From sequence record PQ423993.1: DNA of 45,658 bases. One strand, written 5' to 3'. The notes beneath the pieces are model-generated. The model made no database searches. It saw only the letters and a list, made by a program, of their open reading frames with translations, and had not been told where the DNA came from. Made by a program: the position numbers and the translations under genes. This document shows, piece by piece, positions 6,028 to 39,262 of this stretch; the stretch's first letter is position 1, and every line of letters starts with the position of its first letter. The stretch comes from Escherichia phage vB_VIPECOMC04.

Positions 6028-6197
6028 AGTCAATTACCCCGAACTCATTTATGATTTGGGCCTTGTAGAAGTTGCCGTTTGATGCCAGGTGATACGCCTG
6101 CGCCATAGTCATCTCGCGATAAGTTGCTGCGCTGTTTTCGAATTCCATAACCATCAAAGTAACCATCTTCCGTCTCTCCTCTCGTTTGCGTAAATGA

Positions 6198-6226
6198 ATA
6201 GTAGCCTATTCTATCTTACTATGCAA
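6198..6226 (-). promoter_or_regulatory. sigma70-like promoter (class B) with operator palindrome
   Basis: Minus-strand reading TTGCAT-17-TACTAT; the palindrome GAATAGT-ag-CCTATTC (6196-6211) overlaps the -10; lies upstream of the gene starting at 6166. Confidence 0.45.
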
Positions 6227-6300
6227 GTAAATTTTATTGGTGCTTGTATTGTTGCATCTCCTGCAATAGTCGCTTCTATTGTTGCGTTTGGTGAAATAGA

Positions 6301-6340
6301 ACAAAAATGAGAAAAATGATACGCTGCTGTGTAGCAGCGT
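6301..6340 (-). terminator. intrinsic terminator
   Basis: ACGCTGCT-gtgt-AGCAGCGT hairpin; A-rich 6301-6320 gives a U-rich tract on minus. Confidence 0.5.
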
Positions 6341-6676
6341 AAGTCACTAAGCCAAATAGTAACCTATTGACCTGTTACACCACCTGTTACACCAGCACGA
6401 GCCAGCACACCAGCTTTCCACGCCCGCCACGCGAGACGCGTCTTAACGTTCAGGTACTCTTTCTTCGAACCCTTGTTAACCGGCAGACCCTCTACGACAG
6501 CCCACCGTTCGAATGCCTGTCTCATACCAGAACCTCGCATTCATCCCGATACACGAACAATAACGACCCTTTGTACTCAATCATAAAACCATAATGGTTG
6601 CTGCTGAACGCCAGGAAAACATCACCTACCGAGATACCGAAATCTATAAGCCTGCGGTCAGTTATTCGTATTCTCA

Positions 6677-6970
6677 TTAACGGCAACCTCCCTCAGAGTC
6701 GTCAGCACGAGCATCATGATTCGATGCCGTTCTCATAAACAATTTGCCCTTGCGCTGTAATAAGTCCATCGTTACCGCACCTGCGCCTGACTTATTAGGG
6801 CGACGCAGTATGCTAAAGTTCCATACCCTGGCCTTTGTTACGTCTCTGGCGTTACACACCCACAGAGCACCATTTTCTCTTAGTTCCAGTAAATCAGAAA
6901 TGCTGAAATTATTTACCGGGATAAACCCGCTAATGAACTGGAGTTCGCATTGATGTAATTCTTCCATCAC
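6677..6970 (-). CDS. hypothetical protein
   Basis: ORF track. Confidence 0.35.
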   Translation of the reverse strand: MMEELHQCELQFISGFIPVNNFSISDLLELRENGALWVCNARDVTKARVWNFSILRRPNKSGAGAVTMDLLQRKGKLFMRTASNHDARADDSEGGCR

Positions 6971-7158
6971 TTCGCCCCTTTGAATTTAAAATTGTTGCCG
7001 ATGAGTTTTATTTCGTACTCTCGGTAATACGCCGCGTAATCTAACCCGTGCCCCCTGAGTAAGCTAACGACATAAGAACTTCGGTACACTGTCGATTTCT
7101 TTTCAATAATACCTAAGCTACCGTACATCGTTTTCACCAACTGACCCTTCTTAAACAT
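6967..7158 (-). CDS. hypothetical protein (first gene of the leftward transcription unit)
   Basis: ATG at 7156-7158 with GGAGTGAAGG upstream; product MFKKGQLVKT... Confidence 0.45.
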   Translation of the reverse strand: MFKKGQLVKTMYGSLGIIEKKSTVYRSSYVVSLLRGHGLDYAAYYREYEIKLIGNNFKFKGAK

Positions 7159-7192
7159 AACCTTCACTCCTCAGTCTCGTTTCGATAAGTGA

Positions 7193-7221
7193 ATAGTATC
7201 CTATTATGTTGGGGTGTGCAA
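7193..7221 (-). promoter_or_regulatory. sigma70-like promoter (class B) with operator palindrome
   Basis: Minus-strand reading TTGCAC-17-TACTAT; spacer accccaacataatagga is identical to the plus-strand copy at 29936-29952; palindrome GAATAGT-at-CCTATTA at 7191-7206. Confidence 0.55.
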
Positions 7222-7276
7222 GAGAATAGTTACGTTGCCGTTGTTGTGCCTTTATTCTTATTACTTGGTAACTAAA

Positions 7277-7315
7277 GGGCAGGCTTAAGGCCTGCCCGGT
7301 AAGGGTTACATTTTT
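7277..7315. terminator. strong hairpin with T-run, candidate insulating terminator
   Basis: GGGCAGGC-ttaag-GCCTGCCC stem at 7277-7297 flanked by GTAAC/GTTAC, then TTTTT at 7311-7315; lies in the ORF-free divergent control region. Confidence 0.4.
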
Positions 7316-7579
7316 ACGGTTGCGAATCATTCGGCACTTTAAGAAAATCAGATACTTAAGAGATATGCTGTCGATGTGAATAGAGCTTGCCCAGGGCAAC
7401 CGGAGATACTAAGGAAAGTAAAGTTACGATAATTCTTGTGTTCAGTAAACTGCCGCCTAACACTTCGCGTTGGGCGCTCGTTTTCGGCGGGTTTTACAAG
7501 GTGAACAGGAATCAAAGTAACTAAGATATAGAAGCACCTTAAACGAAGATTTTCATAATGTCAATAGGTGTGATTATGT

Positions 7580-7608
7580 TTGATTTCCCATTATTCGCAA
7601 TGTATACT
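7580..7608 (+). promoter_or_regulatory. candidate early promoter
   Basis: TTGATT-17-TATACT about 30 nt upstream of the first plus-strand gene (ATG 7641). Confidence 0.35.
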
Positions 7609-7640
7609 TGATTTCGTTAACTGATAATGAGGGTTTGAGA

Positions 7641-7811
7641 ATGACACAGAATGAGGTAGCTGAGCGTATCGGGGTTACTCGTCGCACACTGAATAACTGG
7701 TTAAAGAGCGGGAAGTTCCCGGATTGTTGTATTCGCATTATGGGTCGCCGTCAGCCTGGTACGTTTGACCCGGAGAAAGTGGAAGCGTGGATTAAGGAGA
7801 ACGTGAAATGA
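7641..7811 (+). CDS. small HTH DNA-binding protein (AlpA/Xis-like)
   Basis: ATG 7641 with GAGGG upstream; VAERIGVTRRTLNNWLKSGKFP is an HTH signature. Confidence 0.5.
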   Translation: MTQNEVAERIGVTRRTLNNWLKSGKFPDCCIRIMGRRQPGTFDPEKVEAWIKENVK

Positions 7812-8041
7812 CCGAGTTCCAGTCACGCGTATTTACGGCAGTCGTTTCGTTAACACGCAAAAAAGGTTCGTGCAGCGTTATCGACTTGCGCCGTAGCTAT
7901 TTTAAGTACTATAGTTCCGCCATTATTGAAGGGTCGTTGAAGGTGCTGGTTAAATCTGGTGTCGTGAAAAATGTTGGCGGGAGATATAGTGCCGTTGCAG
8001 AAGTTCGCGGAATGACCGCTACTTTAGAAGACCTGGAATAA
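7808..8041 (+). CDS. hypothetical protein with C-terminal EDLE tail
   Basis: ORF track; ends ...TATLEDLE, the same tail as the primase/helicase and exonuclease. Confidence 0.45.
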   Translation: MTEFQSRVFTAVVSLTRKKGSCSVIDLRRSYFKYYSSAIIEGSLKVLVKSGVVKNVGGRYSAVAEVRGMTATLEDLE

Positions 8042-8099
8042 AAGAAAGCCCCGACGCGGTGAACGCCGAGGCAAAATTACTTGCTGAAGGAAATACAAC

Positions 8100-10340
8100 A
8101 TGACCGATGTAATTTTATCCTACTCGTGGTCTCGTCGCAACGCGCGGGCAGAGAAAAAGGATATAAACGTCAGAACCACACACACGGCAACACTGGACGA
8201 CCTGAAAGAGTTAATACAGCCGCTTGATGCCGTTCGTGGCGGAATTAACCCTAAGACCGCACCAGGCTACATCACCGCCGCGTGTGACTCAACGCACAGC
8301 ACCGTAAAAGACCCGGAAACAGGTGACTTTAAGCAAGCGCGCAAAGGTTTCTTTTATCGCTGTGACGCGTCTGTAATCAAATCGTCACTTGCGTATCTGG
8401 ACTTCGACAGTGCAACGCCGGAAGAGTATCGGGAAGCGGTGCGCCTGGTTAAGCGCAGCCGCCCAGCGATGTGCCTCTACACTACGGCATCACATACCGA
8501 TGAGTCGCCGCGCTTTCGCGTCGTCATGCCGCTGGCCCACCCGGTTGAAGGGGGTGACATCATCCGTGTTCGGCATGGATTGCTGGAGCACTTCTTCAAA
8601 GGCATGGGTGCGGACCGTAGCGGGTTCACTCTGTCTCAGCCGATGTACCTGCCGCCGGTTGGCTCTACTGTTATCTGGTCGCGCCGTAACGACCTGATTG
8701 ACCCCGACGAGTTACTGGAAGGTATCCCCGCCGTTGATGTTAGCAGCGCATCGGATTACCAGATACCAGAAGAACTGCGCACCGCGTTTACAGCTGCGTT
8801 CGAAGCCCTGGCGTTCGAATACGGCGGCATCATGACCCCACGCGGCCTTAAGATGCCAGCTACACCAGAACACGCAGAGAACTACAGCGACCCGACGCCG
8901 CGCCCAGACGACTTCCTGTTGTGCTTCCCGCGCGCCGGGTACGAAGCACCGAACGTAACCATGATTCACGACACCGACATTACTGCAACAGAAGGCATGT
9001 CACCGAAAGAGGTGTGGAAGTATGCGTGTGACGCTACCGGGCTGCCGTTCAGTGAAGTGGCTGAGGCCATCGGATGGGGTGCGCGGGAGTCCGTTTCATG
9101 CAGCCTGGACGACCTGGAAGATGACGAGGACTCAGAGGGTGACGAGTTACCAGAACCGGTAAAGGCTGATTTCGTCGTAGAAGGGTACATGCCGTCGGAT
9201 TGCATATGGGATATTGTTGGGGAATCCGGTACGTATAAATCATTCTATACGCTTGGGATGATGTACCTGAGCGCCGCCGGATACCGGTTTGCGGGAGCCG
9301 ATACCCAGCGTTGCCACCATTTCTATATTGACGGTGAGGGTGGCGCGACCACACGCACACGTATCGATGCGCTCGCGGCTAAATATGGTGAGGAAGGTAA
9401 AGATTATGTACATGTCATCGACATGGGTGAAGTAGGCAAACTGAAAAGCCTGATCAAGCTAATGCGCGAAACTGCTGGTGACGAGCCAATTGGCATGGTT
9501 GCGTTCGACACACTCAACCAGACACTGGCACTGACGATTGATAAGTTCGACGAGAACAGTTCATCAACGGCAATCGGCATGGGTAAAGTTATCGCCATCC
9601 TGAAAGAAGTGCGTGACGCTACTAAAGCCGCGGTAGGCGTTGTTCACCACACACCGAAGGGTGGAAAGAAAGCCCGTGGTAGCGGGGCGCTGTATGCCGG
9701 TGTTGATGTGGAGCTTACAATTGAGCGCGCAACCGACCGTCAGATAAACGTATACCACTCGAAATTTAAGCACGGGCCCCAACAGAAAACGGTTGGCATG
9801 GTGCTGGAGTCTGTACAGTTCCGTGAAGCCCCGCCGCCGAAAGAGTACCGTGCAGTTGAGTTCCTGGGTAACACAGAGGAATACGGCGCAATCGTAAACC
9901 TGGACTTGCCGGAACCACACAAAGCGCTTGTGCTGATGCCGTGGGGCTTCGAGCCGTTCAAAACTGACGAGGAGAAAGAGCGGGAAGAAGGGCTGACAAA
10001 GGAAGGTAAAGAAAACGTAAAGAATGCTGTAAAACGTGGGAAGGATGAAGGGCGTAAGGAATCAATACTCGCCGCGCTGGAAGACCTGCAACAGTCCGAC
10101 GACACAGGCCGCGGTTTTACCCAACGGCAGATAGTGGCGAACTCAGGCGACCACGCTATCACAAACCACCATCTTGAGAAGATGCTGAAAGAAGGTGAGT
10201 TGATGCTTGGGTGTGATGCCAACGGTGAAGTTATACCGGGCACATACCGGATACCTGAAAAGATGGGTGACAGATTAAGACCGAAGACAATATACGAACC
10301 GAATGGAATGCTGGTGGTGACAGAAGAGGATTTGGAATAG
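8100..10340 (+). CDS. primase-polymerase (AEP-like) fused to a RepA/DnaB-like AAA ATPase
   Basis: N-terminal AEP-like motifs (LDFD, ASHTDES); central Walker A GESGTYKS and Walker-B-like MVAFD; ends ...VVTEEDLE. Confidence 0.7.
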   Translation: MTDVILSYSWSRRNARAEKKDINVRTTHTATLDDLKELIQPLDAVRGGINPKTAPGYITAACDSTHSTVKDPETGDFKQARKGFFYRCDASVIKSSLAYLDFDSATPEEYREAVRLVKRSRPAMCLYTTASHTDESPRFRVVMPLAHPVEGGDIIRVRHGLLEHFFKGMGADRSGFTLSQPMYLPPVGSTVIWSRRNDLIDPDELLEGIPAVDVSSASDYQIPEELRTAFTAAFEALAFEYGGIMTPRGLKMPATPEHAENYSDPTPRPDDFLLCFPRAGYEAPNVTMIHDTDITATEGMSPKEVWKYACDATGLPFSEVAEAIGWGARESVSCSLDDLEDDEDSEGDELPEPVKADFVVEGYMPSDCIWDIVGESGTYKSFYTLGMMYLSAAGYRFAGADTQRCHHFYIDGEGGATTRTRIDALAAKYGEEGKDYVHVIDMGEVGKLKSLIKLMRETAGDEPIGMVAFDTLNQTLALTIDKFDENSSSTAIGMGKVIAILKEVRDATKAAVGVVHHTPKGGKKARGSGALYAGVDVELTIERATDRQINVYHSKFKHGPQQKTVGMVLESVQFREAPPPKEYRAVEFLGNTEEYGAIVNLDLPEPHKALVLMPWGFEPFKTDEEKEREEGLTKEGKENVKNAVKRGKDEGRKESILAALEDLQQSDDTGRGFTQRQIVANSGDHAITNHHLEKMLKEGELMLGCDANGEVIPGTYRIPEKMGDRLRPKTIYEPNGMLVVTEEDLE

Positions 10341-10357
10341 GTAAAAAGAAAGGGGCG

Positions 10358-10573
10358 TTAAGCCCCTTCACCGAACGCCAGCCACTTGGCGTCTACTTCC
10401 AGTACTTCCGCCAGTTTAAACAGCGTTGCCGGGCGGACGTCCTGAGTTACCCCAAGTGCCAGCTGGTTAATTGCGCCCTGGGACACCCCAGTCAGGACAG
10501 CCAGACGGCGCTGGGAGATGCCAAGTTCTTTACGGCGTTGTTCTACACGAATGCCTAGTTCAGATGGTTGCAT
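10358..10573 (-). CDS. XRE/Cro-CI family HTH transcriptional regulator
   Basis: 71 aa; ISQRRLAVLTGVSQGAINQLALG is a classic XRE helix-turn-helix; AAGGAG RBS; divergent from the class A promoters. Confidence 0.75.
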   Translation of the reverse strand: MQPSELGIRVEQRRKELGISQRRLAVLTGVSQGAINQLALGVTQDVRPATLFKLAEVLEVDAKWLAFGEGA

Positions 10574-10593
10574 TTCAATTACTCCTTAGTTAG

Positions 10594-10622
10594 TTGACAT
10601 GTGAATAGTACCATATTAATTA
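10594..10622 (+). promoter_or_regulatory. promoter-like element, class A (degenerate -10) with operator
   Basis: TTGACA-17-TAATTA; contains GAATAGT-ac-CATATTA; sits 44 bp upstream of a better copy. Confidence 0.35.
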
Positions 10623-10637
10623 TTTTAGAAAAGCCCA

Positions 10638-10666
10638 TTGACATGTGAATAGTTCGCTATTATAGT
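10638..10666 (+). promoter_or_regulatory. sigma70-like promoter, class A, with operator
   Basis: TTGACA-17-TATAGT; spacer holds the palindrome GAATAGT-tc-GCTATTA (10647-10662); 32 nt upstream of ATG 10698. Confidence 0.6.
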
Positions 10667-10697
10667 TAACCCATACCAAACGAGAGGAGAGAAACAA

Positions 10698-11198
10698 ATG
10701 TTAGAGAAATTCTTAGTATTACTGGAACGTTTCGTAGTTGCGCATGAACTGATTGCTGCGAATAGTGCGAAACAGTTCGCGCCAACTACTGCCAAAGAGG
10801 CTGCCGCAGTAGCCGCTCATAAAATTGAGCAGTTCTCTGAAAGTATTAAAGAAGAAACAAAAGAAATCTCGGTCGAAGGTGAAGACGTCGTTGACACTAA
10901 ACCAGCAGAAGAAGAGAAGCCTAAACGCAAGCCGCGTAAAGCTAAAGTAGAGGAACCAACGCCAGAACCGGAAGAAGAGAAAGAAGAAGTCGATTACCAG
11001 TCTCTGCGTGACCAGATTCAGGCTATCGACGATGCGATTAACGAAGGTCCGAGCGACGCCGCGTGTGATGATTCCGATGAACTGCTTGAAGAGTTCACCG
11101 GTAAGAAGATGAAGATTGCCGCGATTAAAGACGAAGACCTGGCTGAATACCTGGAACGACTGACAGCAATCAAGAACAAGTATTTCGAAGAAGAATAA
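10698..11198 (+). CDS. acidic low-complexity protein
   Basis: ORF track; E/K/P-rich, ends ...KYFEEE; GAGGAGAGA RBS. Confidence 0.45.
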   Translation: MLEKFLVLLERFVVAHELIAANSAKQFAPTTAKEAAAVAAHKIEQFSESIKEETKEISVEGEDVVDTKPAEEEKPKRKPRKAKVEEPTPEPEEEKEEVDYQSLRDQIQAIDDAINEGPSDAACDDSDELLEEFTGKKMKIAAIKDEDLAEYLERLTAIKNKYFEEE

Positions 11199-11241
11199 CT
11201 ATCCTGCGGCCCTCGGGCCGCTTTAACTGAGGGTCGGAATT

Positions 11242-11514
11242 ATGATTTACCAACTCTACCGTGCCGTTGACAGGCGGGATAACACAGAGGCGCTATGGTT
11301 ATTGCGTGCGCCGTCCGGTGCTCACCAGATGGAAGAGATGGCGTACTTAGGCAAAGTACCGCGGGCTAAAGATATAAGCCGTCATGTGTCGCAGATTAAG
11401 CGCACGACTTTTGCCAAGCCTGACTTTTATGTCTTCGAGTCGATGTATGGATGGGCCATGCATTGCCAGCACCCGACCAGACATTTAATTGACCAGTGGG
11501 AGAGCAGGGTATGA
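11242..11514 (+). CDS. hypothetical protein
   Basis: ORF track. Confidence 0.4.
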   Translation: MIYQLYRAVDRRDNTEALWLLRAPSGAHQMEEMAYLGKVPRAKDISRHVSQIKRTTFAKPDFYVFESMYGWAMHCQHPTRHLIDQWESRV

Positions 11515-11858
11515 CGGATAAATGGTGGCTTAATTTGCGCAGCGGTGACAAGGTTTACACCGTCGGTGACCGCAGAAAGAACAGCGGCGTAGCTACTGTG
11601 TTACAAAACGGCAAAAAGTACATCCACATTGCGCATGAAGCCCGGGCGCTCCGCGTGAATAAATCTTCTGGTAGGCTTGAGGATTACCCGAAAACATTAA
11701 TATACAAAAGTGAAAAGCATCACATGGCCGCTGTTGACGCAAGACGTCAGTTCGCAGGAATGTTGCGACAGTTAAGCGACTTACATCGCGATGATTCTTT
11801 CACACCCTCAGAAGAACAGCTACAGGCATTAAACTTGTATTTGGAGAGTTTACGATGA
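11511..11858 (+). CDS. hypothetical protein
   Basis: ATG 11511 overlaps the upstream stop (ATGA); ORF track frame. Confidence 0.4.
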   Translation: MTDKWWLNLRSGDKVYTVGDRRKNSGVATVLQNGKKYIHIAHEARALRVNKSSGRLEDYPKTLIYKSEKHHMAAVDARRQFAGMLRQLSDLHRDDSFTPSEEQLQALNLYLESLR

Positions 11859-13096
11859 TTCTAAAAGAACGCGGCGGCAATAACGATGTTCACGCCTTAC
11901 TTTCGCCGTCAGGTGCTAAAAAATGGCTGTCATGCGCTGCATCACTGGCCTGTGAAAAAGATATTCCTAACACGTCGGGTAAATCCGCCGTTACGGGGAC
12001 AGCGTGCCACACCATAGCTGAAGTCCATCTCAACGCCTATATCCGCGGCACTGCGTTGCCGTTAGAGCGTGAAGTTGGCGCTTACGTGCTGGATGAGGGT
12101 AAAGGCCAGATTAAGGCGCTAATCAGCCCGATGAAAGGCGCGGTACTGATTACGGCGGACATGATTGAGCAGGTGCGCAAGTACACCGACTACTGCAAAG
12201 CGATTATCGACGTTGCAACTTACGCAAAGCTGGAGATGCGGGTAAATCTTACTGAGGTGCTGCATCCTGGTTACGAAGGCGTTGAGACATTCGGAACTGC
12301 TGACCTTGTTGCCGTTCAGGAACTGGCGAACACAGACGAGCACATGCTCATTATCGGAGACCTTAAAACAGGACGGCATCGTGTTGAAGCGAAAGAAAAC
12401 AAGCAGCTTATGCTCTACGCTCTCGGTGTTTATCGCCGACTCAAGAGACGTTATAACATCACCGCGGTTCGTCTGGCCATCTTTCAGCCATACGCTGGCG
12501 GCGCGTCGGAGTGGGACATCTCGGTTGAAGGTCTGGAACTGTTCGCTAAGTTTGCGCAGAAACGGGCGCTGTTAGCTCTTGATGCGTATTTCCGTGGTAA
12601 AAAGAACCTGAAAGCGTCGGACTTCAGGCCGTCTGTCGACGGTTGCCAATGGTGCCGTTTCTCAGAGCAGTGCGCCGCGCGTACAAAAACCGTCAACGCG
12701 GTGCTGGCGGAAGAACTGGAGGACGACTTTGCGCTGGAACTGACGCCGGAGCAACTCGTCGCTGAGTATGAGAAGCTGCCGCTGTTGCGCCAGCACATCG
12801 ATAAGGTTGAGAAAGCTATGGCTGCTGCGTTGCATTCCGGTAAGAAAGTTCCTGGGTACAAGCTGGTTGAAGGTAAGATGGGCAATCGTGCGTGGAAAGA
12901 CGCGGAGAAAGTAACAGAACTCTACGGCGACAAGCTGACTAAAGAAGTGCTCATGACGCCAACCGAAGCTGTTAAAGTGATACCGGAAGAAGAACTGAAA
13001 GACTTCATCACACGTAAGCCAGGTGCCCCATGCATCACAACGGCAGACGACAAACGGCCTGAGTGGAATCAGGTTAGTGAAGAAGATTTGGAATAA
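11855..13096 (+). CDS. PD-(D/E)XK exonuclease, Cas4/RecB-like with Fe-S cysteines
   Basis: Motifs IIGDLKTG and QLMLYALG plus Cys pattern C...CQWCRFSEQC; ends ...VSEEDLE. Confidence 0.7.
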   Translation: MILKERGGNNDVHALLSPSGAKKWLSCAASLACEKDIPNTSGKSAVTGTACHTIAEVHLNAYIRGTALPLEREVGAYVLDEGKGQIKALISPMKGAVLITADMIEQVRKYTDYCKAIIDVATYAKLEMRVNLTEVLHPGYEGVETFGTADLVAVQELANTDEHMLIIGDLKTGRHRVEAKENKQLMLYALGVYRRLKRRYNITAVRLAIFQPYAGGASEWDISVEGLELFAKFAQKRALLALDAYFRGKKNLKASDFRPSVDGCQWCRFSEQCAARTKTVNAVLAEELEDDFALELTPEQLVAEYEKLPLLRQHIDKVEKAMAAALHSGKKVPGYKLVEGKMGNRAWKDAEKVTELYGDKLTKEVLMTPTEAVKVIPEEELKDFITRKPGAPCITTADDKRPEWNQVSEEDLE

Positions 13097-13101
13097 AGTG
13101 T

Positions 13102-13130
13102 TGACACCTGAATAGTTAGCTATTATAGTT
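13102..13130 (+). promoter_or_regulatory. sigma70-like promoter, class A, with operator
   Basis: TTGACA-17-TATAGT; palindrome GAATAGT-ta-GCTATTA at 13111-13126; upstream of the SSB gene. Confidence 0.6.
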
Positions 13131-13184
13131 CTAATCACTGGCCGGGCAGCTCCCGGAGTAAACTGAAAACTGAGGAATCGAGAA

Positions 13185-13811
13185 ATGGGGCTGAAATTAA
13201 ATCTGCGTAAAGTAAACACTGCCTGGGTTAACGTATTCGAACGCGAAAAAGACCGTGAAAATGATGATGGTTCAATCACTAAAGGTCAGTACAGCGCGAC
13301 TATTATCCTGCCGTCCGACCACGCGCAAATCGACGCGCTCTACGACACCGTTTACGCTGTAGTTGAAGAAGCGTTAGGTGCAGCCGCCGCTGAGAAGTGG
13401 ATGAAGTCTAACTACGGCGAAGGTAAGCACATGGATAAATGTGCGATTAAAGACATTGCTGAGCGTGACAATCCGTTTGAAGACTTCCCGGAGGGCTTCT
13501 ACTTCAAAGCGAAGGCACAGAAACAGCCGCTGATTGTTACCTCTAAAAAAGGTGAGACTCAGGTAGAGCAGGACTTCAATGTAGACGGCGAACAGATTGA
13601 AGGTGAACAAGTTTACAGCGGCTGCGTCGCTAACGTAAGCGTCGAAATCTGGTTCAGCCAGAAATACAAAGTCCTCGGCGTTAACCTGCTGGCTATTAAA
13701 TACGTAGGCGAAGGTAAAGCGTTCGGCGGTTCTAAAGTCGCCGCAAGCGTCAATGACCTGGAAGATGACGAAGAAGAAGAAGCACCGCGCCGCGAACGTC
13801 GCCGCCGCTAA
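13185..13811 (+). CDS. ssDNA-binding protein, T7 gp2.5-like
   Basis: Beta-rich core resembling gp2.5-type SSBs; tail DLEDDEEEEAPRRERRRR (acidic then basic). Confidence 0.55.
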   Translation: MGLKLNLRKVNTAWVNVFEREKDRENDDGSITKGQYSATIILPSDHAQIDALYDTVYAVVEEALGAAAAEKWMKSNYGEGKHMDKCAIKDIAERDNPFEDFPEGFYFKAKAQKQPLIVTSKKGETQVEQDFNVDGEQIEGEQVYSGCVANVSVEIWFSQKYKVLGVNLLAIKYVGEGKAFGGSKVAASVNDLEDDEEEEAPRRERRRR

Positions 13812-13830
13812 TATCTGAATGAATTTAACT

Positions 13831-13856
13831 AAGGCCCTTCATTGGGCCTTTTTACC
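13831..13856 (+). terminator. intrinsic terminator
   Basis: AAGGCCC-ttcatt-GGGCCTT followed by TTTACC. Confidence 0.5.
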
Positions 13857-13865
13857 GGAGTCAGA

Positions 13866-14339
13866 ATGGAACATATAAAAGATTTTCTTAGCTATAACCG
13901 AGAAACCGGAATATTCATATGGATACAACCTACATACAGACGAGGGAAACCTGGAGACATCGCAGGATGCATCAATAGTAGTGGATACTGGCGAATACCT
14001 TATATGGGTAGATATTACATGGCCCACAGGCTCGCTTGGTTTTTCGAGTACGGTGAATGGCCCGAGGGTCCTCTTGACCACATAAACCGTGACAGGTTAG
14101 ACAATAGGATTTCTAACCTAAGGAAAGCAACCACCGCAGATAATGTGCGAAACGCTAAAAATAAGGGGGCTAGAACGGGAGTTAAGGGAGTAGTTAAAAC
14201 CGACAACCGATTTTATGGGCGGGTACATTTTAACTACAAAAGTTATAATGCGGGTAGCTACGGAACTCTTGAAGAAGCAGAAAGCGCTGTAAAGAAATTA
14301 AGAGAAAAATTGCATAAGGAATTTTATTGCCATGACTAG
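13866..14339 (+). CDS. HNH homing endonuclease with AP2 domain
   Basis: HRLAWFFEYGEWPEGPLDHINRDRLDNRISNLR (HNH) followed by an AP2-like segment; abuts the DNA polymerase start. Confidence 0.8.
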   Translation: MEHIKDFLSYNRETGIFIWIQPTYRRGKPGDIAGCINSSGYWRIPYMGRYYMAHRLAWFFEYGEWPEGPLDHINRDRLDNRISNLRKATTADNVRNAKNKGARTGVKGVVKTDNRFYGRVHFNYKSYNAGSYGTLEEAESAVKKLREKLHKEFYCHD

Positions 14340-17410: not shown

Positions 17411-17739
17411 CTAAAGAGGGGCGCATCCAGAAATACGCAAAAGAGCGATTCGAGGCCATTGGTGGCCTCGTTCGTAAATTGTCGTACGAAAACAGAGTGG
17501 GAGCCCCTGACCTGCTGGTAATTCTACCCGGCGGCATCGTCTGGTTCGTCGAGGTTAAGAAAGACGAAAACACGAAGCCAGACCCGCACCAGCTACGGGA
17601 ACATGAGAGATTCCGAAAACGTGGAGTTAATGTTTTTGTCGTTGGTTCGTTTAAACAGGTTGACGCCCTAATAGCATACTATTATAGTTATCACATACCC
17701 CAACAATATAAGGAATTGAGAAATGAAATACGAATATGA
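17407..17739 (+). CDS. VRR-NUC domain nuclease
   Basis: GAPDLLVILPGGIVWFVEVK fits the PD-(D/E)XK VRR-NUC signature; start taken at ATG 17407 within the track ORF. Confidence 0.6.
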   Translation: MTKEGRIQKYAKERFEAIGGLVRKLSYENRVGAPDLLVILPGGIVWFVEVKKDENTKPDPHQLREHERFRKRGVNVFVVGSFKQVDALIAYYYSYHIPQQYKELRNEIRI

Positions 17740-20408: not shown

Positions 20409-20436
20409 AAAGGCCCCAAACGGGGCCTTGTTTATT
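20409..20436 (+). terminator. intrinsic terminator closing the plus-strand replication block
   Basis: AAGGCCCC-aaac-GGGGCCTT followed by GTTTATTT; overlaps the tail fiber stop on the other strand. Confidence 0.6.
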
Positions 20437-29821: not shown

Positions 29822-29929
29822 TCTTTAATCCTTTGGTTAAGAGGTTACAGGTTAATGGTAAATGCGCCAGACGGGAACCACCCGCTTTTCGTGTGCGACA
29901 CTAGGCGCAAAATTATTCTATCACATTAC

Positions 29930-29958
29930 TTGCGCACCCCAACATAATAGGATACTAT
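29930..29958 (+). promoter_or_regulatory. sigma70-like promoter (class B) with operator palindrome
   Basis: TTGCGC-17-TACTAT; palindrome TAATAGG-at-ACTATTC at 29945-29960; drives the plus-strand moron cassette. Confidence 0.55.
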
Positions 29959-29999
29959 TCACTTACACCAACAATGTTAACTCAAACAGGAGCTACACC

Positions 30000-31361: not shown

Positions 31362-31558
31362 AAGACATGTATGAATGCACCGAGGTAAGTCCGTATGCAG
31401 AGAAAAATGGGTTCGAAGTAGGTGCGGTGTACGAAGGAGTCACCCTAGAGAATGGCGATGTAAGAATGTATTCGCCTAAATATCGCAGCTTCTTTGAAAT
31501 AGGCAACATTAACGAGTCAGGCATAGCCAGATTTAAGAGAGTTAACAGTGACAAATAA
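31358..31558 (+). CDS. hypothetical protein
   Basis: ORF track; start overlaps the upstream stop. Confidence 0.35.
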   Translation: MKDMYECTEVSPYAEKNGFEVGAVYEGVTLENGDVRMYSPKYRSFFEIGNINESGIARFKRVNSDK

Positions 31559-31778: not shown

Positions 31779-31810
31779 GAAAAAGGCCCCGAAAGGGGCC
31801 TTTTTCTTAC
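31776..31810. terminator. bidirectional intrinsic terminator
   Basis: AGGCCCC-gaaa-GGGGCCT flanked by an A-run upstream and TTTTCTT downstream. Confidence 0.65.
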
Positions 31811-34221: not shown

Positions 34222-34234
34222 GTGAACTTATTCA

Positions 34235-34849: not shown

Positions 34850-34851
34850 TT

Positions 34852-35364
34852 TTAACCCCGGTACACGTTAAACGAGAAACCATTGTTAAGACCACCACAC
34901 AATAACGGGCGCAAAGCGTCGTCAGCAGCGGTAATCGCGGTCGTAGCGCCACTGTTGCCATTGTTGAAGTAGGTCACTGTTACCGCACCCTCGACACGCT
35001 CAGTCTGCACGGCGCGGCCGTCTGAGTTAGCCCGGACTTCGGTGCCCTCGCCATATGTAGCGGCAGCGATTACCTGCGCAAGAATCACCTGTTTCGGAAT
35101 GGCGTTGTTGGCCACCGGGAACCCGTTTAACGTAACGCCGGTGCGGGGGTACGCCAGCGACTGTTCGGCGGATACACGACGACCGCACATCTGAGGTTCT
35201 GCAAGCCCGACATAAGTAGCGCCGTTGCGCAAGGCTACCTCGGCAGCGGTATCGTCAGCAGGTAGCTCAAGACCATAATTAGCCGCTAACGCGCGGGCGT
35301 CAGCCAGACTAATGTAACTGTCAGCATTAGGGACGATTTCACCCGTTTCCACGATTAGCGGCAT
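34852..35364 (-). CDS. head-tail connector / head completion protein
   Basis: Position downstream of the capsid and decoration genes. Confidence 0.35.
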   Translation of the reverse strand: MPLIVETGEIVPNADSYISLADARALAANYGLELPADDTAAEVALRNGATYVGLAEPQMCGRRVSAEQSLAYPRTGVTLNGFPVANNAIPKQVILAQVIAAATYGEGTEVRANSDGRAVQTERVEGAVTVTYFNNGNSGATTAITAADDALRPLLCGGLNNGFSFNVYRG

Positions 35365-35583
35365 AAATTATTCCTCTGACTTACGGCGGCGACGCTTAGT
35401 ACCACCGCCATTGTTGTGTGCTTCTTCGTTGTCCGGTTGAGTCGCAACCAGTTCATCCGCTTCTTCCACACCGCGAACAGGCATCACCTGACCGTCAACA
35501 ATATCGACATGGGTGTACTTTTCGCGGATTACATAATTATCTGCCATGACCTTTCCTTATTACGGCCCCGAAGGGCCGCTGTA

Positions 35584-35925
35584 TTAAGACACAGTTGCTA
35601 CAGTGCTGCTGGAGATAATATTACCATACGCATCGTGAACAACCACTTTATACGTACCGGAATCAGCGGTAGTGGTTGACGCTTTAGTATAGGTAGCCTC
35701 GGTAGCCCCGGAGATGGCGTTGTTATTCTTATACCACTGGTGAGAATACGGCTCCAGACCGCCAGTTACGGTTACGGTCAGTGTCATGGTTTCGCCCGCG
35801 GTAACGGAGGTAGTAGCCGCCAGCGCGGGTGAGAAAGACGCAGGAGAAATAGTCGCCATGTCAATCTTAGCACCAGGGGCGTCAGCGGAGACGACGGTGA
35901 TGCGTCGCTTCAATACGTCTGCCAT
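35584..35925 (-). CDS. Ig-like domain protein (likely head decoration)
   Basis: YSHQWYKNNNAISGATEATYT...SGTYKVVV is an Ig-like pattern; directly downstream of the capsid gene. Confidence 0.5.
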   Translation of the reverse strand: MADVLKRRITVVSADAPGAKIDMATISPASFSPALAATTSVTAGETMTLTVTVTGGLEPYSHQWYKNNNAISGATEATYTKASTTTADSGTYKVVVHDAYGNIISSSTVATVS

Positions 35926-35986
35926 TTAGGAATCCTCTTAGTAAATGAAAAGAGGGACCGAAGTCCCTCTCGATTATAGCTTAACC

Positions 35987-37036
35987 TTAAGCACCGACAC
36001 CAGTTACCAGGAAGGCAATCGGTACATGCTTACGTTCAACCACACGGTTCCAGTTGGAGGCATTCGCCAGGTCCTGCCAGGAAGCGGAGCGTGCTACCGT
36101 CTCGGTGCCGTTGCCGGTGATTACTGCGCTGGTGAAGCTGTATCCCAATGGGTGCAGCAACCAGGTCTTACGGGTCCACAGGGTTTCAACGCCGCCACCG
36201 TTGCCGCGGGACTCTTCACGTTCATATGCCAGCGGATTGGTCGGGTTACCTTCGCCGTAACCGATAGCGCCGTTGCCGAAGATGATGGAGATGAACTTAC
36301 GGCTCGGGCCGGTGCCAACTACGGTCATGCTGTCATCAACAATCACGCGGTAACCCTGGTAGGTGGCGAACAGGGTGTCGTTGTCAGCGTTTTTGATGAA
36401 GTCGATAAGCTGCTGCTTACGTGCCTGCGCATAAACGAAGCTGTGCATCGCGATAGCACCCAGCACTTCTCCGCCGTTGCCTATCAGCGCATCACCCATA
36501 GTCTGGGTGGCGTCGATGAACGCACCTGCGTCGAAGCCCAGAGTAGCAGACACGTCTACAACCATGTCATTCCGCTCGTGGTATGCGTCGGTAGCGGCTA
36601 CGTTGTCATTGTACAGACCGAGCGCGGTAGCGATCAGACGGCGTTGCGCCTGGCGCTGCCAGAAGTTATCCAGACGGGACGCTACTGATTGCAGCGGGTT
36701 CTGGCTGGTCAGTTCGACAGTCAGGTCCGCCTGACCAAAACCTTCGTTCAGGTACGCAACGCGCGCCATCATCTCACCGGTCTGCACGTTACGCGGGGTA
36801 GCGATGTCCTGGTATACGTCGTTCGAGTAGTTCGGCTCGATGGAAGTGTCAATCGCTTTCCAGAAAGGAATATTAGCGACGTTGGACGGGCCGCGGGCAA
36901 TCTCGGCAGCGTATGGGGTCGGGGTCAGAATACCAGACTGGAAGAACGCGGTTTTTTCTACCGGGTCCTCGGTCATATAAGACGCCAGGACCGGGATGTT
37001 GCCAGTTACGATATCGCCGATAGTGGTAATTGCCAT
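35987..37036 (-). CDS. major capsid protein
   Basis: 349 aa; immediately after the scaffold gene; RBS-coupled. Confidence 0.7.
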   Translation of the reverse strand: MAITTIGDIVTGNIPVLASYMTEDPVEKTAFFQSGILTPTPYAAEIARGPSNVANIPFWKAIDTSIEPNYSNDVYQDIATPRNVQTGEMMARVAYLNEGFGQADLTVELTSQNPLQSVASRLDNFWQRQAQRRLIATALGLYNDNVAATDAYHERNDMVVDVSATLGFDAGAFIDATQTMGDALIGNGGEVLGAIAMHSFVYAQARKQQLIDFIKNADNDTLFATYQGYRVIVDDSMTVVGTGPSRKFISIIFGNGAIGYGEGNPTNPLAYEREESRGNGGGVETLWTRKTWLLHPLGYSFTSAVITGNGTETVARSASWQDLANASNWNRVVERKHVPIAFLVTGVGA

Positions 37037-37038
37037 TA

Positions 37039-37740
37039 TTATTTCCTCAGGGCTTTAAGTTGCCGTTCAAATTCGGCAGGGTTCGATTTATACAGGGCTA
37101 AACGCTCTGCTTCACTCATGTCTTTAAACGCTGGTGCGGCCCCGCCGCCTTTGCTACCGGAAGCCCCGCCGCCGGAAGCTGCATTTGCTTTAATCAAATG
37201 CGAAAACGCTTTGTGTTCACGCAGGTATTTGCGGAACTGTTCCGGGTCAGTTGTGATTACGTTACCGTCTGCGCCGACAAACTTAGTAACCACGTCATCG
37301 CCTTCGAACTCAGTCTTAACGAACGGAGCGAGAATGTCTACCGCTTCCGGGGTAATAAAGTCGCCCGCGAAAGAGCCTAACACCGCTTTACGTTCGCTGC
37401 CGAGGATGCGCTCTGCCATTCTGGAGATGCGACCATCTTTCTCGGCTAACACCGGGTCATACTGGCTACGAATCGTCTTTTCGAACTCATCCATCTTACC
37501 AGCGGCTTTTAACGCCTCCTGGTGTGCGCGCTGCCGTTCTTCTTCAGCCTCTTTTGCTTTACGAGCGGCTTCTTTCTTCTCCGCCAGCAATGCTTCCTGA
37601 TTAGCCTTAAGCCCGGCGACTTCTTTTTCAATCAGCGCCTGAACTTCTTCAGCAGTGAACATTTTCGGCGCGTCACCGCCGCCAGATTTATCTTCTGCCC
37701 CAGCTTCTTCCTGGAACGGATAGCGTAAAAAACGATTCAT
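37039..37740 (-). CDS. scaffolding protein
   Basis: Start moved to ATG 37738-37740; Ala/Glu/Lys-rich coiled coil; directly upstream of the capsid gene. Confidence 0.55.
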   Translation of the reverse strand: MNRFLRYPFQEEAGAEDKSGGGDAPKMFTAEEVQALIEKEVAGLKANQEALLAEKKEAARKAKEAEEERQRAHQEALKAAGKMDEFEKTIRSQYDPVLAEKDGRISRMAERILGSERKAVLGSFAGDFITPEAVDILAPFVKTEFEGDDVVTKFVGADGNVITTDPEQFRKYLREHKAFSHLIKANAASGGGASGSKGGGAAPAFKDMSEAERLALYKSNPAEFERQLKALRK

Positions 37741-37822
37741 AGTCAGTATGTCCCCTGGACGTTGGAACCCGGGCCACCCGGATTTACATGTCAAGAATAA
37801 ATTATTCCAACATGCAAGGCAA

Positions 37823-38062
37823 CTATTCCAGAATATTCCTCACGTAATCCTGCAACATGAACACTTTCAGTCTCAGTTGCCGTGCGCATTCGGCGTTCTG
37901 AACGTCGATAGCTAAATCCTCGTCCGCGTCGCTACTTGGCGGTGCCAGTTTGCACGGTGGTTGCATCATCGTCGTATCCGGGGATGGAATTGGCGTTTGC
38001 AACGGCGCGGGACTTGAGCACCCGTAGCACCCTATAACTAAGAGCAATATTGGCAGTCGCAT
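37823..38062 (-). CDS. Rz1-like outer-membrane lipoprotein (o-spanin candidate)
   Basis: Signal peptide with lipobox-like LLVIGC, then proline-rich SPAPLQTPIPSP. Confidence 0.45.
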   Translation of the reverse strand: MRLPILLLVIGCYGCSSPAPLQTPIPSPDTTMMQPPCKLAPPSSDADEDLAIDVQNAECARQLRLKVFMLQDYVRNILE

Positions 38063-38607
38063 TTGAAAAAATCTCCATGTAGCTTCTTGGCAGCTTGCAC
38101 GTAGGCCATGTGTGCGTCGACGGGGGAGTCGAACTGACCGAGATATTTGGTCTTGTTGCGGATTCTTATGTCCGCACGGAATCTGCCGTTCGGGAACCTA
38201 GAAACCCCCTTGAACCCTGTACTATTAGCGGACGTGAGACCAACGTTACGGCTGTTCTCTTGGCTAGTAGCAAGCCTGAGATTTTCTATACGATTGTTGA
38301 GTGGGTTCCCGTCAATGTGGTCTATCTCATATGGTGTCGGAATCGGCCCATTGAAAAGTTCCCATATAAGCCGGTGCGCTTGAAACGCCTTACCCATCCA
38401 TCTAACCTCTATCGTCTGTCGCCGTTTTGCGCCTTTCGGCGTGGTCAGGCACCCTGCCGGGGTTCCTGTTTTATTAGCGAGCTTACTGCTACGCCAGTAA
38501 AGAACCCCATCGTCGTAGTAGAAAGTATCATTCAGTATAGTCATATCCTGGTATCCCGTTTGCATTGCTGATAGCGTCGTATTTGACTCTAACTCTATCA
38601 GCGTCAA
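38038..38607 (-). CDS. HNH homing endonuclease with AP2 domain
   Basis: HRLIWELFNGPIPTPYEIDHIDGNPLNNRIENLR plus AP2-like segment; overlaps both spanin candidates; true start probably internal. Confidence 0.75.
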   Translation of the reverse strand: MTLIELESNTTLSAMQTGYQDMTILNDTFYYDDGVLYWRSSKLANKTGTPAGCLTTPKGAKRRQTIEVRWMGKAFQAHRLIWELFNGPIPTPYEIDHIDGNPLNNRIENLRLATSQENSRNVGLTSANSTGFKGVSRFPNGRFRADIRIRNKTKYLGQFDSPVDAHMAYVQAAKKLHGDFFKCDCQYCS

Positions 38608-38887
38608 ACTTGCAAGATACTTTATTGGGCCTACTTATGTACTTAACGACTTCACGGGTAATCACCTCTGATTTCGTCTTGCCTTCGTTGTCGGCGGCTG
38701 CGGCCTTTGATTCATCCTGCTGCTGCCGTTGTGTTTTCTTCGCTAACTCAGCCTGCGCTTTCTGCTGTTGCTGCGAAACGAGATTCGCCCGGCCTTCATT
38801 CCAGCCGCTGCGGTACTGATAGATGCCGTGTGCGTAAGCCAGGATGATGAAACATGCTCCTGCTACGACAGTTGCTTTAAGATTCAT
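38528..38887 (-). CDS. Rz-like inner-membrane spanin candidate
   Basis: N-terminal TM anchor MNLKATVVAGACFIILAYAHGIY, then a Q/A/K-rich coiled coil. Confidence 0.45.
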   Translation of the reverse strand: MNLKATVVAGACFIILAYAHGIYQYRSGWNEGRANLVSQQQQKAQAELAKKTQRQQQDESKAAAADNEGKTKSEVITREVVKYISRPNKVSCKFDADRVRVKYDAISNANGIPGYDYTE

Positions 38888-39138
38888 GTTTCCCCTTTCT
38901 CGATAAGTAAAGCCCCGCCTTAAAGCGGGGCGCTAGTCCTTATCATTTAAACATAGAAACGGCGTAATCTCAGTAAACCAGTTACTTTTTACACAAGCAA
39001 TAGAGTATGGCCCTTCCGAACGCGTCAGCGTAACTACACTCAGGACTTACGTCCCGCTCCGTTACCTGCCCGCGCCGCGGTCGCTTGTTCATACTTCACA
39101 AGCTCAGGTGGAGCTTAGCACATTTTTAGTGAAAAGTC

Positions 39139-39154
39139 AACTATTCGAATAGTT
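39139..39154. promoter_or_regulatory. perfect 16-bp palindrome built from the operator half-site
   Basis: AACTATTCGAATAGTT; same GAATAGT/ACTATTC half-sites as the promoter operators but in everted order; abuts a TTGACT hexamer on the minus strand. Confidence 0.4.
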
Positions 39155-39206
39155 TATTCCAACGTTTACAATTGAGTGGAATAACTGGAATACGTAAATA
39201 AATAGT

Positions 39207-39235
39207 TTGCGCGCACCAACATAATAGGGTACTAT
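39207..39235 (+). promoter_or_regulatory. sigma70-like promoter (class B) with operator palindrome
   Basis: TTGCGC-17-TACTAT; palindrome TAATAGG-gt-ACTATTC at 39222-39237; 28 nt upstream of the mini-clamp ATG. Confidence 0.55.
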
Positions 39236-39262
39236 TCGGTTAACTTAAACAGGAGATGAGAA

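Follow-up and report, generated by a model that had tools for sequence, protein, structure and literature searches.

A 14-bp dyad in the promoters of a virulent Escherichia phage as the candidate operator of a phage-encoded Cro-like protein

A 14-bp dyad, AATAG-N4-CTATT, was found in almost every recognisable promoter of the window, which is the complete 45,658-nt genome of Escherichia phage vB_VIPECOMC04 (PQ423993.1), a virulent siphovirus of the genus Kagunavirus (Guernseyvirinae). Judged from sequence comparison, the dyad is probably an operator at which two copies of a phage-encoded protein bind symmetrically and repress early and middle transcription, and the most likely binder is a 71-aa Cro/C1-type helix-turn-helix (XRE) protein encoded at 10358..10573 on the minus strand, a gene with its own terminator (10369-10349).

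The dyad and its placement in promoters

The perfect core AATAG-N4-CTATT occurred eight times in the window against approximately 0.03 expected in Markov simulations, and 11 matches were obtained with at most one mismatch (0.96 expected). The longer pattern GAATAGTNNACTATTC gave eight matches at up to two mismatches, compared with 0.11 expected, and none of 100 shuffled sequences reached this number; the motif is thus far more frequent than in simulated or shuffled sequence. Furthermore, when 5-mer inverted repeats of every kind were counted without bias in this genome and in relatives, AATAG-N4-CTATT ranked top. A preliminary description of the genome had listed eight copies of a 7-2-7 inverted repeat. 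The repeat is real and all eight copies are present, at the listed positions except for one that lies a base to the left (13110-13125 rather than 13111-13126), but none has perfect 7-2-7 symmetry; what is conserved is a 5-4-5 core. Six of the eight GAATAGTNNACTATTC matches were on that list, two (2431 and 39131) were not, and the listed copies at 6354 and 10603 differ from GAATAGTNNACTATTC at three positions; a perfect promoter site at 17670-17683 had been missed. The isolated half-sites proposed near 7224 and 7378 did not stand out as a signal, since GAATAGT heptamers outside the dyads numbered four (7224, 10760, 37822, and 39147) against approximately 5.6 by chance, although the GAATAG at 7378 is kept in relatives.

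Of the 11 sites, ten share bases with predicted promoter hexamers. Nine of these are located 25-61 bp upstream of a start codon, and the tenth, at 39132, is in a promoter approximately 245 bp upstream of its first gene. The two promoter classes described previously, in which the dyad fills the spacer (A) or covers the -10 (B), were both recovered, and a third class (C), in which it lies over a -35 TTGACT, has to be added, together with one orphan site. In class A, the perfect operator O1 (AATAGTTCGCTATT, 10648..10661) is predicted to fill the spacer of the rightward promoter TTGACA(10638)-17-TATAGT(10661-10666), with the dyad centre at about -18.5, and its half-sites are invariant in 37 Kagunavirus genomes. 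Perfect operators of the same class occupy the spacers of TTGACA(13101)-17-TATAGT (13111..13124, plus strand), upstream of the ssDNA-annealing and DNA polymerase genes, and of TTGACG(17660)-17-TATAGT (17670..17683, plus strand), which lies within the 3' end of the preceding ORF, upstream of the gene starting at 17723 and helicase genes.

Class B comprises perfect operators over the -10 hexamer. On the minus strand, the operator at 7192..7205 (dyad centre at about -12.5) covers the -10 of TTGCAC(7221-7216)-17-TACTAT(7198-7193), predicted to drive the small genes 7167..6364, and the operator at 6197..6210 covers that of TTGCAT(6226-6221)-17-TACTAT(6203-6198), predicted to drive the leftward small genes from 6166. 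On the plus strand, both operators belong to moron units: the one at 29946..29959 over TTGCGC(29930)-17-TACTAT(29953) precedes a superinfection-immunity protein and a phosphoesterase, divergent from the tail operon, and the one at 39223..39236 over TTGCGC(39207)-17-TACTAT(39230) precedes a unit annotated as a RusA-like protein. The class B -35 given earlier, TTGC[A/G]C, holds at 7193, 29930, and 39207 but reads TTGCAT at 6198. A -10 TACTAT is also covered by operator O2 (AATAGTACCATATT, 10604..10617), which has one mismatch, in the putative minus-strand promoter of the XRE gene, whose ATG lies 31 bp downstream of the operator. O2 is kept as AATATGGTACTATT in the 37 Kagunavirus genomes and is likely an autoregulatory site of the XRE gene.

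Two imperfect sites overlap a -35. The site at 39132..39145 (reverse complement AATAGTTGACTTTT) overlaps TTGACT(39140-39135) of a leftward promoter with a -10 TAAGCT(39117-39112), followed by a conserved leader of approximately 200 nt ending in a terminator and then by the spanin/head operon; an extra half-site beside it forms the everted 16-bp palindrome at 39139-39154, as described earlier. The site at 2432..2445 (reverse complement ACTAGTTGACTATT) overlaps the -35 of TTGACT(2440)-17-TATATT(2412) on the minus strand, with the dyad centre at about -33.5, and precedes the small genes and the terminase operon; Kagunavirus genomes retain this site, and Jerseyvirus has it as AATAGTTGACTAGT. The perfect orphan site (6355..6368), which had been placed at the start of a transcription unit, lacks promoter hexamers and overlaps the stop codon of 6364..6540(-), with a terminator (6341-6320) 14 bp further on, and its orthologue is present in only 12 of the 37 Kagunavirus genomes. 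No dyad was found in the promoter (7580) of the operon that encodes an HTH_17 protein and the primase.

Evolution of the dyad in Guernseyvirinae and alternative readings

We compared 37 Kagunavirus and 14 Jerseyvirus genomes (51 in total) and, in addition, Cornellvirus genomes. In the 51 genomes, the half-sites are invariant, with free variation in the central N4 and in the linker that joins the -35 to the dyad. The dyad centre lies in different registers, about -18.5, -12.5, and -33.5 as above, -15.5 at the Jerseyvirus moron promoter, and -3.5 in Cornellvirus, so that its distance from the hexamers differs by 3-21 bp among promoters and genera and the dyad is, therefore, separable from them. 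AATAG-N4-CTATT has no copy in the Cornellvirus genomes, which instead hold five to six copies of AWTAS-N4-STAWT (mostly ATTAG-N4-GTAWT) against approximately 0.5 expected, several of them at orthologous promoters in which the -35, the -10, and the downstream sequence are unchanged. For instance, in the promoter orthologous to that at 13111, AATAG..CTATT is kept in Jerseyvirus and reads ATTAG..GTATT in Cornellvirus. Such a concerted change of the word is what an altered specificity of a trans-acting factor would predict. Taken together, the fixed half-sites, the variable centre, the shifting register, and the change in Cornellvirus indicate that the dyad is likely to be the operator of a phage factor and not a promoter element. 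The earlier proposal that one dimeric regulator controls both divergent units and both morons fits this comparative pattern, except that the HTH_17-primase promoter is free of the dyad.

The motif itself has already been reported in genome papers that used PHIRE analysis, in which TAATAGTACCCTATTATGTT is the same element. A Kagunavirus paper listed seven "phage RNA polymerase promoters" with the consensus tgAATAGTa-ccTATTat-T (PMC9825357), and similar PHIRE elements were given elsewhere (PMC8790156, PMC7203180); these papers either give no mechanism or invoke a phage RNA polymerase, for which the genome has no gene. The phage-specific promoter proposed there, a consensus read by a phage-encoded RNA polymerase or by the host enzyme redirected through a phage factor, with no repressor involved, would agree with the right half-site overlapping or abutting the -10 in classes A and B. 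This reading is nevertheless improbable, because the 73 genes annotated in a genome of 94% identity include neither an RNA polymerase nor a sigma gene, the sites lie inside near-consensus sigma-70 promoters (for example, TTGACA-17-TATAGT, which scores 11/12), and the motif is two-fold symmetric with a variable centre, moves relative to the hexamers, and has a perfect copy at 6355 with no promoter around it. We consider it still less credible that the copies arose from promoter cassettes duplicated and scattered by recombination, with a functionless dyad. Phage genomes are mosaic, and the 17-nt class B spacer is, as described earlier, identical at 7199-7215(-) and 29936-29952(+); however, classes A, B, and C share only the half-sites and differ in their flanks, the bases next to the invariant half-sites drift among the 51 genomes, and every site changed jointly in Cornellvirus. 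Equally implausible is a site for an E. coli or Salmonella transcription factor exploited by the phage. Short AT-rich 5-4-5 dyads do serve host regulators, such as FNR, but AATAG-N4-CTATT is not known as the consensus of any host regulator, and a host factor is disfavoured because Jerseyvirus and Cornellvirus share Salmonella as host and yet differ in the word at orthologous promoters.

Candidate binding proteins

Both proteins suggested earlier as the binder, XRE and HTH_17, were considered, and XRE is favoured by its homology to phage 434 Cro and by the geometry of the sites. It matches Pfam HTH_3 (E 2e-12), and its best PDB sequence match is 434 Cro over the full length (E 2e-6); its AF2 model (pLDDT 81.5) has 2cro as the best fold match (TM 0.73-0.79), so that 434 Cro and the N-terminal domain of 434 cI are nearest by both sequence and fold. 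The 434 operators are 14 bp long with conserved outer bases and a variable centre, a geometry like that of AATAG-N4-CTATT. XRE is also 44% identical to Cro of the lambdoid Klebsiella phage RothD, which is encoded in a cI-cro-cII context; RothD shows ACAA-N6-TTGT, and TGTAG-N4-CTACA dyads adjoin related XRE genes in other viral contigs. The 125-bp gap beside the XRE gene holds two sites, the weaker of which covers its own -10, and XRE was the sole one of three candidates tested that is present in all three genera. Its recognition helix is essentially invariant within Kagunavirus. Between Kagunavirus and Jerseyvirus, however, which share the same core operator, XRE identity is only 49%, below that of every other conserved protein in the comparison bar a holin match (others 55-94%), and four of seven helix positions differ (SQGAINQ versus SQSLITH); the Jerseyvirus helix is nearer to that of Cornellvirus, although the Cornellvirus word differs.

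The operator may instead be bound by the 56-aa HTH_17 protein (7641..7811, plus strand), an excisionase/MerR-like winged helix encoded by the first gene of the helicase-primase operon, or by another small phage protein, two copies of which would occupy the inverted half-sites while XRE acts only locally. This alternative is unlikely but deserves to be taken seriously, as the distribution of HTH_17 is that of the strict motif (present in Kagunavirus and Jerseyvirus and absent from Cornellvirus; 442 phage records, all of the Kagunavirus/Jerseyvirus type), it is 87.5% identical between the two genera with the same operator in comparison with 49% for XRE, and it is predicted to be expressed from a conserved dyad-free promoter. 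RacA, which binds a 14-bp inverted repeat via two separate winged-helix domains, is among its weak fold matches. On the other hand, these matches (E > 0.02) are mostly excisionases and BldC, which bind direct repeats, and no dyad adjoins the HTH_17 gene. Within Kagunavirus, the operator is constant but the putative recognition helix of HTH_17 takes several forms (VTRRTLNNWL, VTRQTINNWL, VSPMTLNRWL), and K1H, with the most divergent helix, still has seven perfect sites. Moreover, a second binder would be required for Cornellvirus, which has no HTH_17 but in which a related dyad is enriched at the same promoters.

Relation to known systems and proposed role

XRE and the dyads resemble the lambdoid immunity switch of phage 434 (Cro/cI; OR1-3 and OL1-3) in that both Cro and XRE are 71 aa, the operators are 14-bp pseudo-palindromes with conserved outer bases and a variable centre that overlap promoters, and a pair of sites separates the regulator gene from a divergent operon. 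Unlike 434, this phage has no cI partner, integrase, or lysogeny, the word is AATAG rather than ACAAG, and approximately 11 sites, predicted at four registers including the -35, are spread genome-wide compared with six at two loci. Dispersed operator networks are known from temperate phages, namely the gp71 stoperators of mycobacteriophage L5, the C1 operators of P1, and the conserved inverted repeats of phiC31, and are similar in that a single phage regulator, putative here, serves many scattered sites, many of them at promoters; the orphan site at 6355 resembles a stoperator in its position at a gene end. In L5 and P1, repressors that maintain the prophage bind asymmetric sites, which in L5 act within transcription units, whereas the present sites are symmetric and nearly all in promoters of a virulent phage. 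Controller (C) proteins of restriction-modification systems are likewise dimers of a small XRE-fold protein, and the fold matches of XRE include C.AhdI and C.BclI. Their tandem dyads (C-boxes) precede the C gene itself and are graded in affinity, which lets the protein regulate its own synthesis, and it activates and then represses one operon; here, by contrast, there are no linked restriction-modification genes and the sites span the genome. Beyond the PHIRE papers, the present analysis adds the dyad symmetry, the variable register, the evolution across genera, and the link to a Cro-like protein. No binding, transcription-start, or expression results for any Guernseyvirinae phage were found in the literature searched.

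From the motif, its enrichment, placement, and conservation, and from the family of the protein, we infer the following binding, its binder, repression, and temporal order. An XRE dimer would bind the 14-bp sites over the -10, the spacer, or the -35 of host sigma-70-type promoters and thereby block RNA polymerase. The eight perfect sites, seven of which are in promoters of early small-gene units, three replication/recombination units, and two morons (the eighth is the orphan), would be filled first, and the imperfect sites, at XRE's own promoter and at the two promoters leading into the packaging and head operons, later or less fully. If all strong promoters were repressed, the route of late expression would lack an explanation, which counts against this model. 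The leader and terminator before the head operon hint at a separate antitermination step. Through such binding, XRE would control its own gene and shut off the transcription of early and middle units relative to that of late ones, in a phage with neither a cI-type partner nor lysogeny. The candidate gene switch is of an ordinary kind but spread genome-wide.

Distribution and promoter context of the dyad

Judging from the gene order, which agrees with that of complete Kagunavirus genomes (Guernseyvirinae, 41–45 kb), the window is the entire genome of a virulent, tailspike-bearing siphovirus. A megablast search with positions 6000–14000 as the query matched 449 phage records, among which Escherichia phage vB_VIPECOTPH05A (TPH05A) was the top match with 94% identity over 91% of the query, and the 73 genes annotated in a 94%-identical relative (PQ429079) include no integrase, cI-type repressor, RNA polymerase, or sigma factor.

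The preliminary description had drawn attention to a 16-bp inverted repeat with half-sites of 7 bp separated by 2 bp, and this observation was confirmed and extended. The site coordinates were correct to within one base, and the pattern (GAATAGTNNACTATTC) gave 8 matches at up to two mismatches, compared with 0.11 expected. Reading the sites, however, indicated that the invariant part is shorter than the proposed unit, being the 14-bp dyad AATAG-N4-CTATT. The perfect core was found at 6197, 6355, 7192, 10648, 13111, 17670, 29946, and 39223, that is, 8 copies compared with 0.03 expected in Markov simulations of the window, and one-mismatch copies at 2432, 10604, and 39132 brought the number to 11, compared with 0.96 expected in shuffles (maximum, 5). 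When all inverted repeats of 5-mers spaced 0–10 bases apart were counted without bias in the window, TPH05A, and K1H (a Kagunavirus relative), the dyad ranked first in each. A 16-bp everted palindrome and a 17-nt spacer identical in two promoters were also present as described, whereas the isolated half-sites do not stand out as functional elements, because four GAATAGT heptamers lie outside the dyads and chance alone gives about 5.6.

Predicted sigma-70-like hexamers are overlapped by 10 of the 11 sites. The two promoter classes previously proposed, A and B, were both found, and a third, class C, had gone unseen. In class A (TTGAC(A/G)-17-TATAGT at 10638, 13101, and 17660 on the plus strand), the dyad fills the spacer with its centre at about −18.5, and in class B (TTGC(A/G)(C/T)-17-TACTAT at 7193 and 6198 on the minus strand and at 29930 and 39207 on the plus strand), the −10 hexamer lies inside the right half-site with the centre at about −12.5. 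Class B also takes in the putative promoter of the gene for XRE, a 71-amino-acid Cro/C1-type helix-turn-helix protein (10358–10573, minus strand), without a good −35 hexamer. The −35 hexamer of class C is covered by an imperfect dyad with its centre at about −33.5, as seen in TTGACT-17-TATATT at 2440 (minus strand, site 2432) and TTGACT-17-TAAGCT at 39140 (minus strand, site 39132). The divergent promoter previously proposed with TTGACA at 10594 was rejected, most relatives having TTGATA there. The perfect sites belong to early small-gene units, three replication/recombination units, and the two moron units, and the imperfect sites to the promoter of the candidate regulator itself and to the promoters leading into the terminase and head operons. 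The promoter at 7580 (TTGATT-17-TATACT), which serves the operon of the primase and HTH_17, a 56-amino-acid protein (7641–7811, plus strand), is conserved without a dyad. The site at 6355–6368 is perfect with no surrounding promoter, overlaps a stop codon, and is followed 14 bp further on by a terminator; an orthologue could be located in 12 of the 37 Kagunavirus genomes only, and the site might act as a roadblock or represent a relic.

The conserved class B spacer ACCCCAACAT carries on its opposite strand TTGGGG, with TACGTT or TAGAAT after a gap of 16 bp, which yields candidate reverse promoters at 7209–7236 (plus strand) and 29942–29915 (minus strand). TTGGGG-16-TAGAAT points to the tail operon and TTGGGG-16-TACGTT to the replication operon, and the class B promoter at 6198 has neither a divergent partner nor this spacer. 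By their hexamers, the class B spacers could represent back-to-back divergent promoters with a shared dyad near −44.5.

Several other elements were observed in the window. The second most frequent dyad is a 20-bp hairpin, AAGGCCCC-N4-GGGGCCTT, with four copies (13831–13850, 20410–20429, 31783–31802, and 39789–39808), three of which lie between convergent units, so that they look like a common bidirectional terminator; K1H has the identical four copies, and the outermost dyad (AAGGC-N10-GCCTT) occurs five times in TPH05A. At 29822–29925, 5' of the tail-assembly-chaperone gene, a non-coding stretch of about 100 nt is conserved in Kagunavirus, Jerseyvirus, and Cornellvirus and includes the hairpin GCGGGAACCACCCGC; Rfam gave no matches anywhere in the window, this stretch included. 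Between the endolysin terminator and a class C promoter, 2562–2462 (minus strand) holds a TTGACA-17-GATACT promoter followed about 60 nt on by a terminator (CCCGGC...GCCGGG with a T run), an arrangement that could be a small-RNA unit. The 430-bp non-coding stretch from the class B promoter to the HTH_17 gene (7210–7640) is mostly variable in relatives with conserved islands within it, of which one (7348–7400) has a GAATAG half-site adjoining the palindrome TTGCCCAGGGCAA and another has a single AATAG located 12 bp 5' of the −35 hexamer of the dyad-free promoter at 7580. Terminator-like hairpins are present there on both strands (7297–7277 and 7454–7476).

Comparative evidence and known systems

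For comparison, we used 75 viral contigs encoding an XRE relative and seven GenBank phage records, and extracted orthologous sites by the best Hamming match, anchor-string extraction having been dropped as too noisy. The half-sites were almost never altered across 37 Kagunavirus and 14 Jerseyvirus genomes, whereas the central four bases showed more than 12 variants and the linker between the −35 hexamer and the dyad also varied, 1-bp indels included. The centre of the dyad at the orthologous moron promoter was at about −12.5 in Kagunavirus, −15.5 in Jerseyvirus, and −3.5 in Cornellvirus. The Cornellvirus genomes examined had no copies of AATAG-N4-CTATT and instead carried a related dyad (ATTAG-N4-GTATT or ATTAS-N4-STAAT) in 5–6 copies, compared with about 0.5 expected, several of them at orthologous promoters where the −35 and −10 hexamers and the downstream sequence were otherwise conserved (for example, TTGACAcctgAATAGTTAGCTATTATAGTtctaatcactggcc in Kagunavirus vs TTGACAtagcATTAGTACAGTATTATAGTtcaatcactggcc in Cornellvirus). 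The identical substitutions at independent Cornellvirus sites suggest that a trans-acting reader of the dyad has changed, and, as Jerseyvirus and Cornellvirus both grow on Salmonella, that reader would be phage-encoded. We consider it probable that the dyad is an operator. The earlier reading of the palindrome as the target of one regulator is largely borne out but was incomplete, and its proposed binder is a candidate.

The element itself has been listed previously. In a Kagunavirus paper, the PHIRE output tgAATAGTa-ccTATTat-T was named a phage-RNA-polymerase promoter (PMC9825357), and a Salmonella phage paper gave TAATAGTACCCTATTATGTT as a regulatory element (PMC8790156). In the literature on Guernseyvirinae transcriptomes, operators, and promoter mapping, PHIRE listings alone were found, and no paper in the literature searched read the element as an operator or tied it to a Cro-like gene. 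A promoter of this kind would be expected to come with a phage-encoded polymerase or sigma factor and to have a fixed position relative to the transcription start. Neither gene is among those annotated in PQ429079, and the sites here sit in sigma-70-type hexamers and range in predicted register, relative to predicted starts, from about −3.5 to about −33.5.

The features of the 434 and lambdoid systems are found here in part: XRE is predicted to be a five-helix HTH_3 protein of about 70 amino acids, and the sites are pseudo-palindromes of fixed length, with conserved outer half-sites and a variable centre, that overlap promoters, but no cI-like repressor that could be the divergent partner in a bistable lysis–lysogeny switch, and no integrase, was found among the 73 CDS of the closest annotated relative. 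By gene content and site architecture, the system would work like a Cro–operator pair and is not an immunity region. The stoperators of L5 gp71 are asymmetric, orientation-biased, and located inside transcription units, where they block elongation, whereas the sites here are symmetric, with 10 of 11 in promoters and only that at 6355 at a gene end. The dispersed-operator networks of L5 and P1 also differ from the present one in site symmetry and phage lifestyle.

Candidate binding proteins

On balance, we favor XRE as the protein that binds the dyad, at somewhat better than even odds. XRE matched Pfam HTH_3 (E = 2e-12), and the top phmmer match among solved structures was phage 434 Cro (E = 2e-6, residues 6–68), which is likewise 71 amino acids long. 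Five helices are present in the AF2 model (pLDDT 81.5), for which 2cro was the top Foldseek match (TM 0.73/0.79). XRE is also 44% identical to Cro of the lambdoid Klebsiella phage RothD, the gene of which lies between cI and cII and adjoins ACAA-N6-TTGT operators. The 434 operators are 14 bp long; their outer bases are conserved and their centre makes no protein contacts, and the operator geometry here (14 bp, conserved outer bases, and variable centre) is the same. Positions 1 and 4 are A both in 434 (ACAA) and here (AATA), and Q32 and Q37 of XRE may correspond to the glutamines that read these positions in 434, which offers a lead. Two candidate operators adjoin the XRE gene, the perfect site at 10648–10661 and the one-mismatch site at 10604–10617, of which the latter, weaker one covers the −10 hexamer of the gene; the gene stands alone, convergent with the helicase–primase gene. 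Among the distant XRE loci fetched, which were mostly uninformative, three unrelated viral contigs (L069–L071) showed TGTAG-N4-CTACA-type 14-bp dyads beside longer cI-like XRE relatives; in L070, counted from the XRE gene, they lie around −123 and +279/+308. These dyads have the 5-4-5 geometry and the inner TAG/CTA bases in common with that of the window.

The dyad might instead be bound by HTH_17, an excisionase/MerR-like winged-helix protein, which is confined to Kagunavirus and Jerseyvirus, a distribution that matches the strict motif exactly, and shows 87.5% identity from one genus to the other. The identity of XRE between them is only 49%, a lower value than for any other conserved protein compared (55–94%) except for a holin match, and 4 of 7 positions of its recognition helix differ while the core AATAG is common to both; this divergence despite one core operator would count against XRE. 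XRE is nearly invariant within Kagunavirus, however. The putative recognition helix of HTH_17 varies inside that genus with the operator constant, and Cornellvirus has kept a dyad in the absence of HTH_17. XRE is the only one of three candidates tested that is common to all three genera. On covariation of recognition residues with the operator, the observations are mixed: the Cornellvirus XRE (40% identity, S31T) accompanies the altered word ATTAG, the Kagunavirus and Jerseyvirus helices differ with the core word shared, and the base flanking the half-site is T or G in Kagunavirus and always T in Jerseyvirus. The structural relatives of HTH_17 are, for the most part, direct-repeat binders. The remaining candidate, the phrog_5169 protein (7808–8041), was excluded because it is absent from K1H, which has 7 perfect sites.

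Proposed regulation and significance

With XRE as the candidate binder, it would bind the operators as a dimer and repress transcription. It would be expressed from a weak promoter under an imperfect operator and hence limit its own level. As XRE rises, it would fill the perfect operators, and, because these cover the −10 hexamer or the spacer, with which RNA polymerase has to make contact, the early, replication, and moron units would be shut down. The imperfect sites over the −35 hexamers of the packaging and head promoters would be less occupied, which could move the balance to late genes.

Late expression probably needs a further factor or step. The TTGACT-17-TAAGCT promoter and the first spanin/head gene are separated by a leader of about 200 nt (39106–38905, minus strand), which a strong intrinsic terminator (38931–38912) closes directly before the ribosome-binding site. 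Two other Kagunavirus genomes match this leader at 99% identity, where the genome-wide figure is about 90%, and in Jerseyvirus the stem of the terminator carries compensatory changes. The arrangement is reminiscent of lambda PR'-tR' and suggests that late genes may depend on antitermination.

It could be imagined that a single Cro-like protein with graded operators runs the whole temporal programme of a virulent phage. The early, replication, and moron promoters would be silenced through their perfect sites, the packaging and head promoters would be spared because their sites are imperfect and cover the −35 hexamer, and the class B module TTGCRC-ACCCCAACAT-dyad may be a back-to-back switch, in which a dimer bound near −44.5 of the opposite promoter could activate that one and repress the first. 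We regard this full scheme, class B switch included, as unlikely.

Mechanistically, a Cro-type regulator with its operators is an expected sort of switch, and its reading as such would correct a published account that ascribes the motif to an RNA polymerase of the phage. It would also offer a concrete and inexpensive test, in which a single 71-amino-acid protein and a single 14-bp site come with natural variants of specificity from three genera, and, for engineering, compact repressible promoters of three architectures for these small phages. More broadly, phages of the Guernseyvirinae (Kagunavirus and Jerseyvirus) are widely isolated as agents for therapy and for biocontrol in food, where a "repressor" annotation can wrongly flag a temperate lifestyle. 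To read XRE as a Cro-type regulator of lytic growth, acting on a defined set of operators, would clear this ambiguity.
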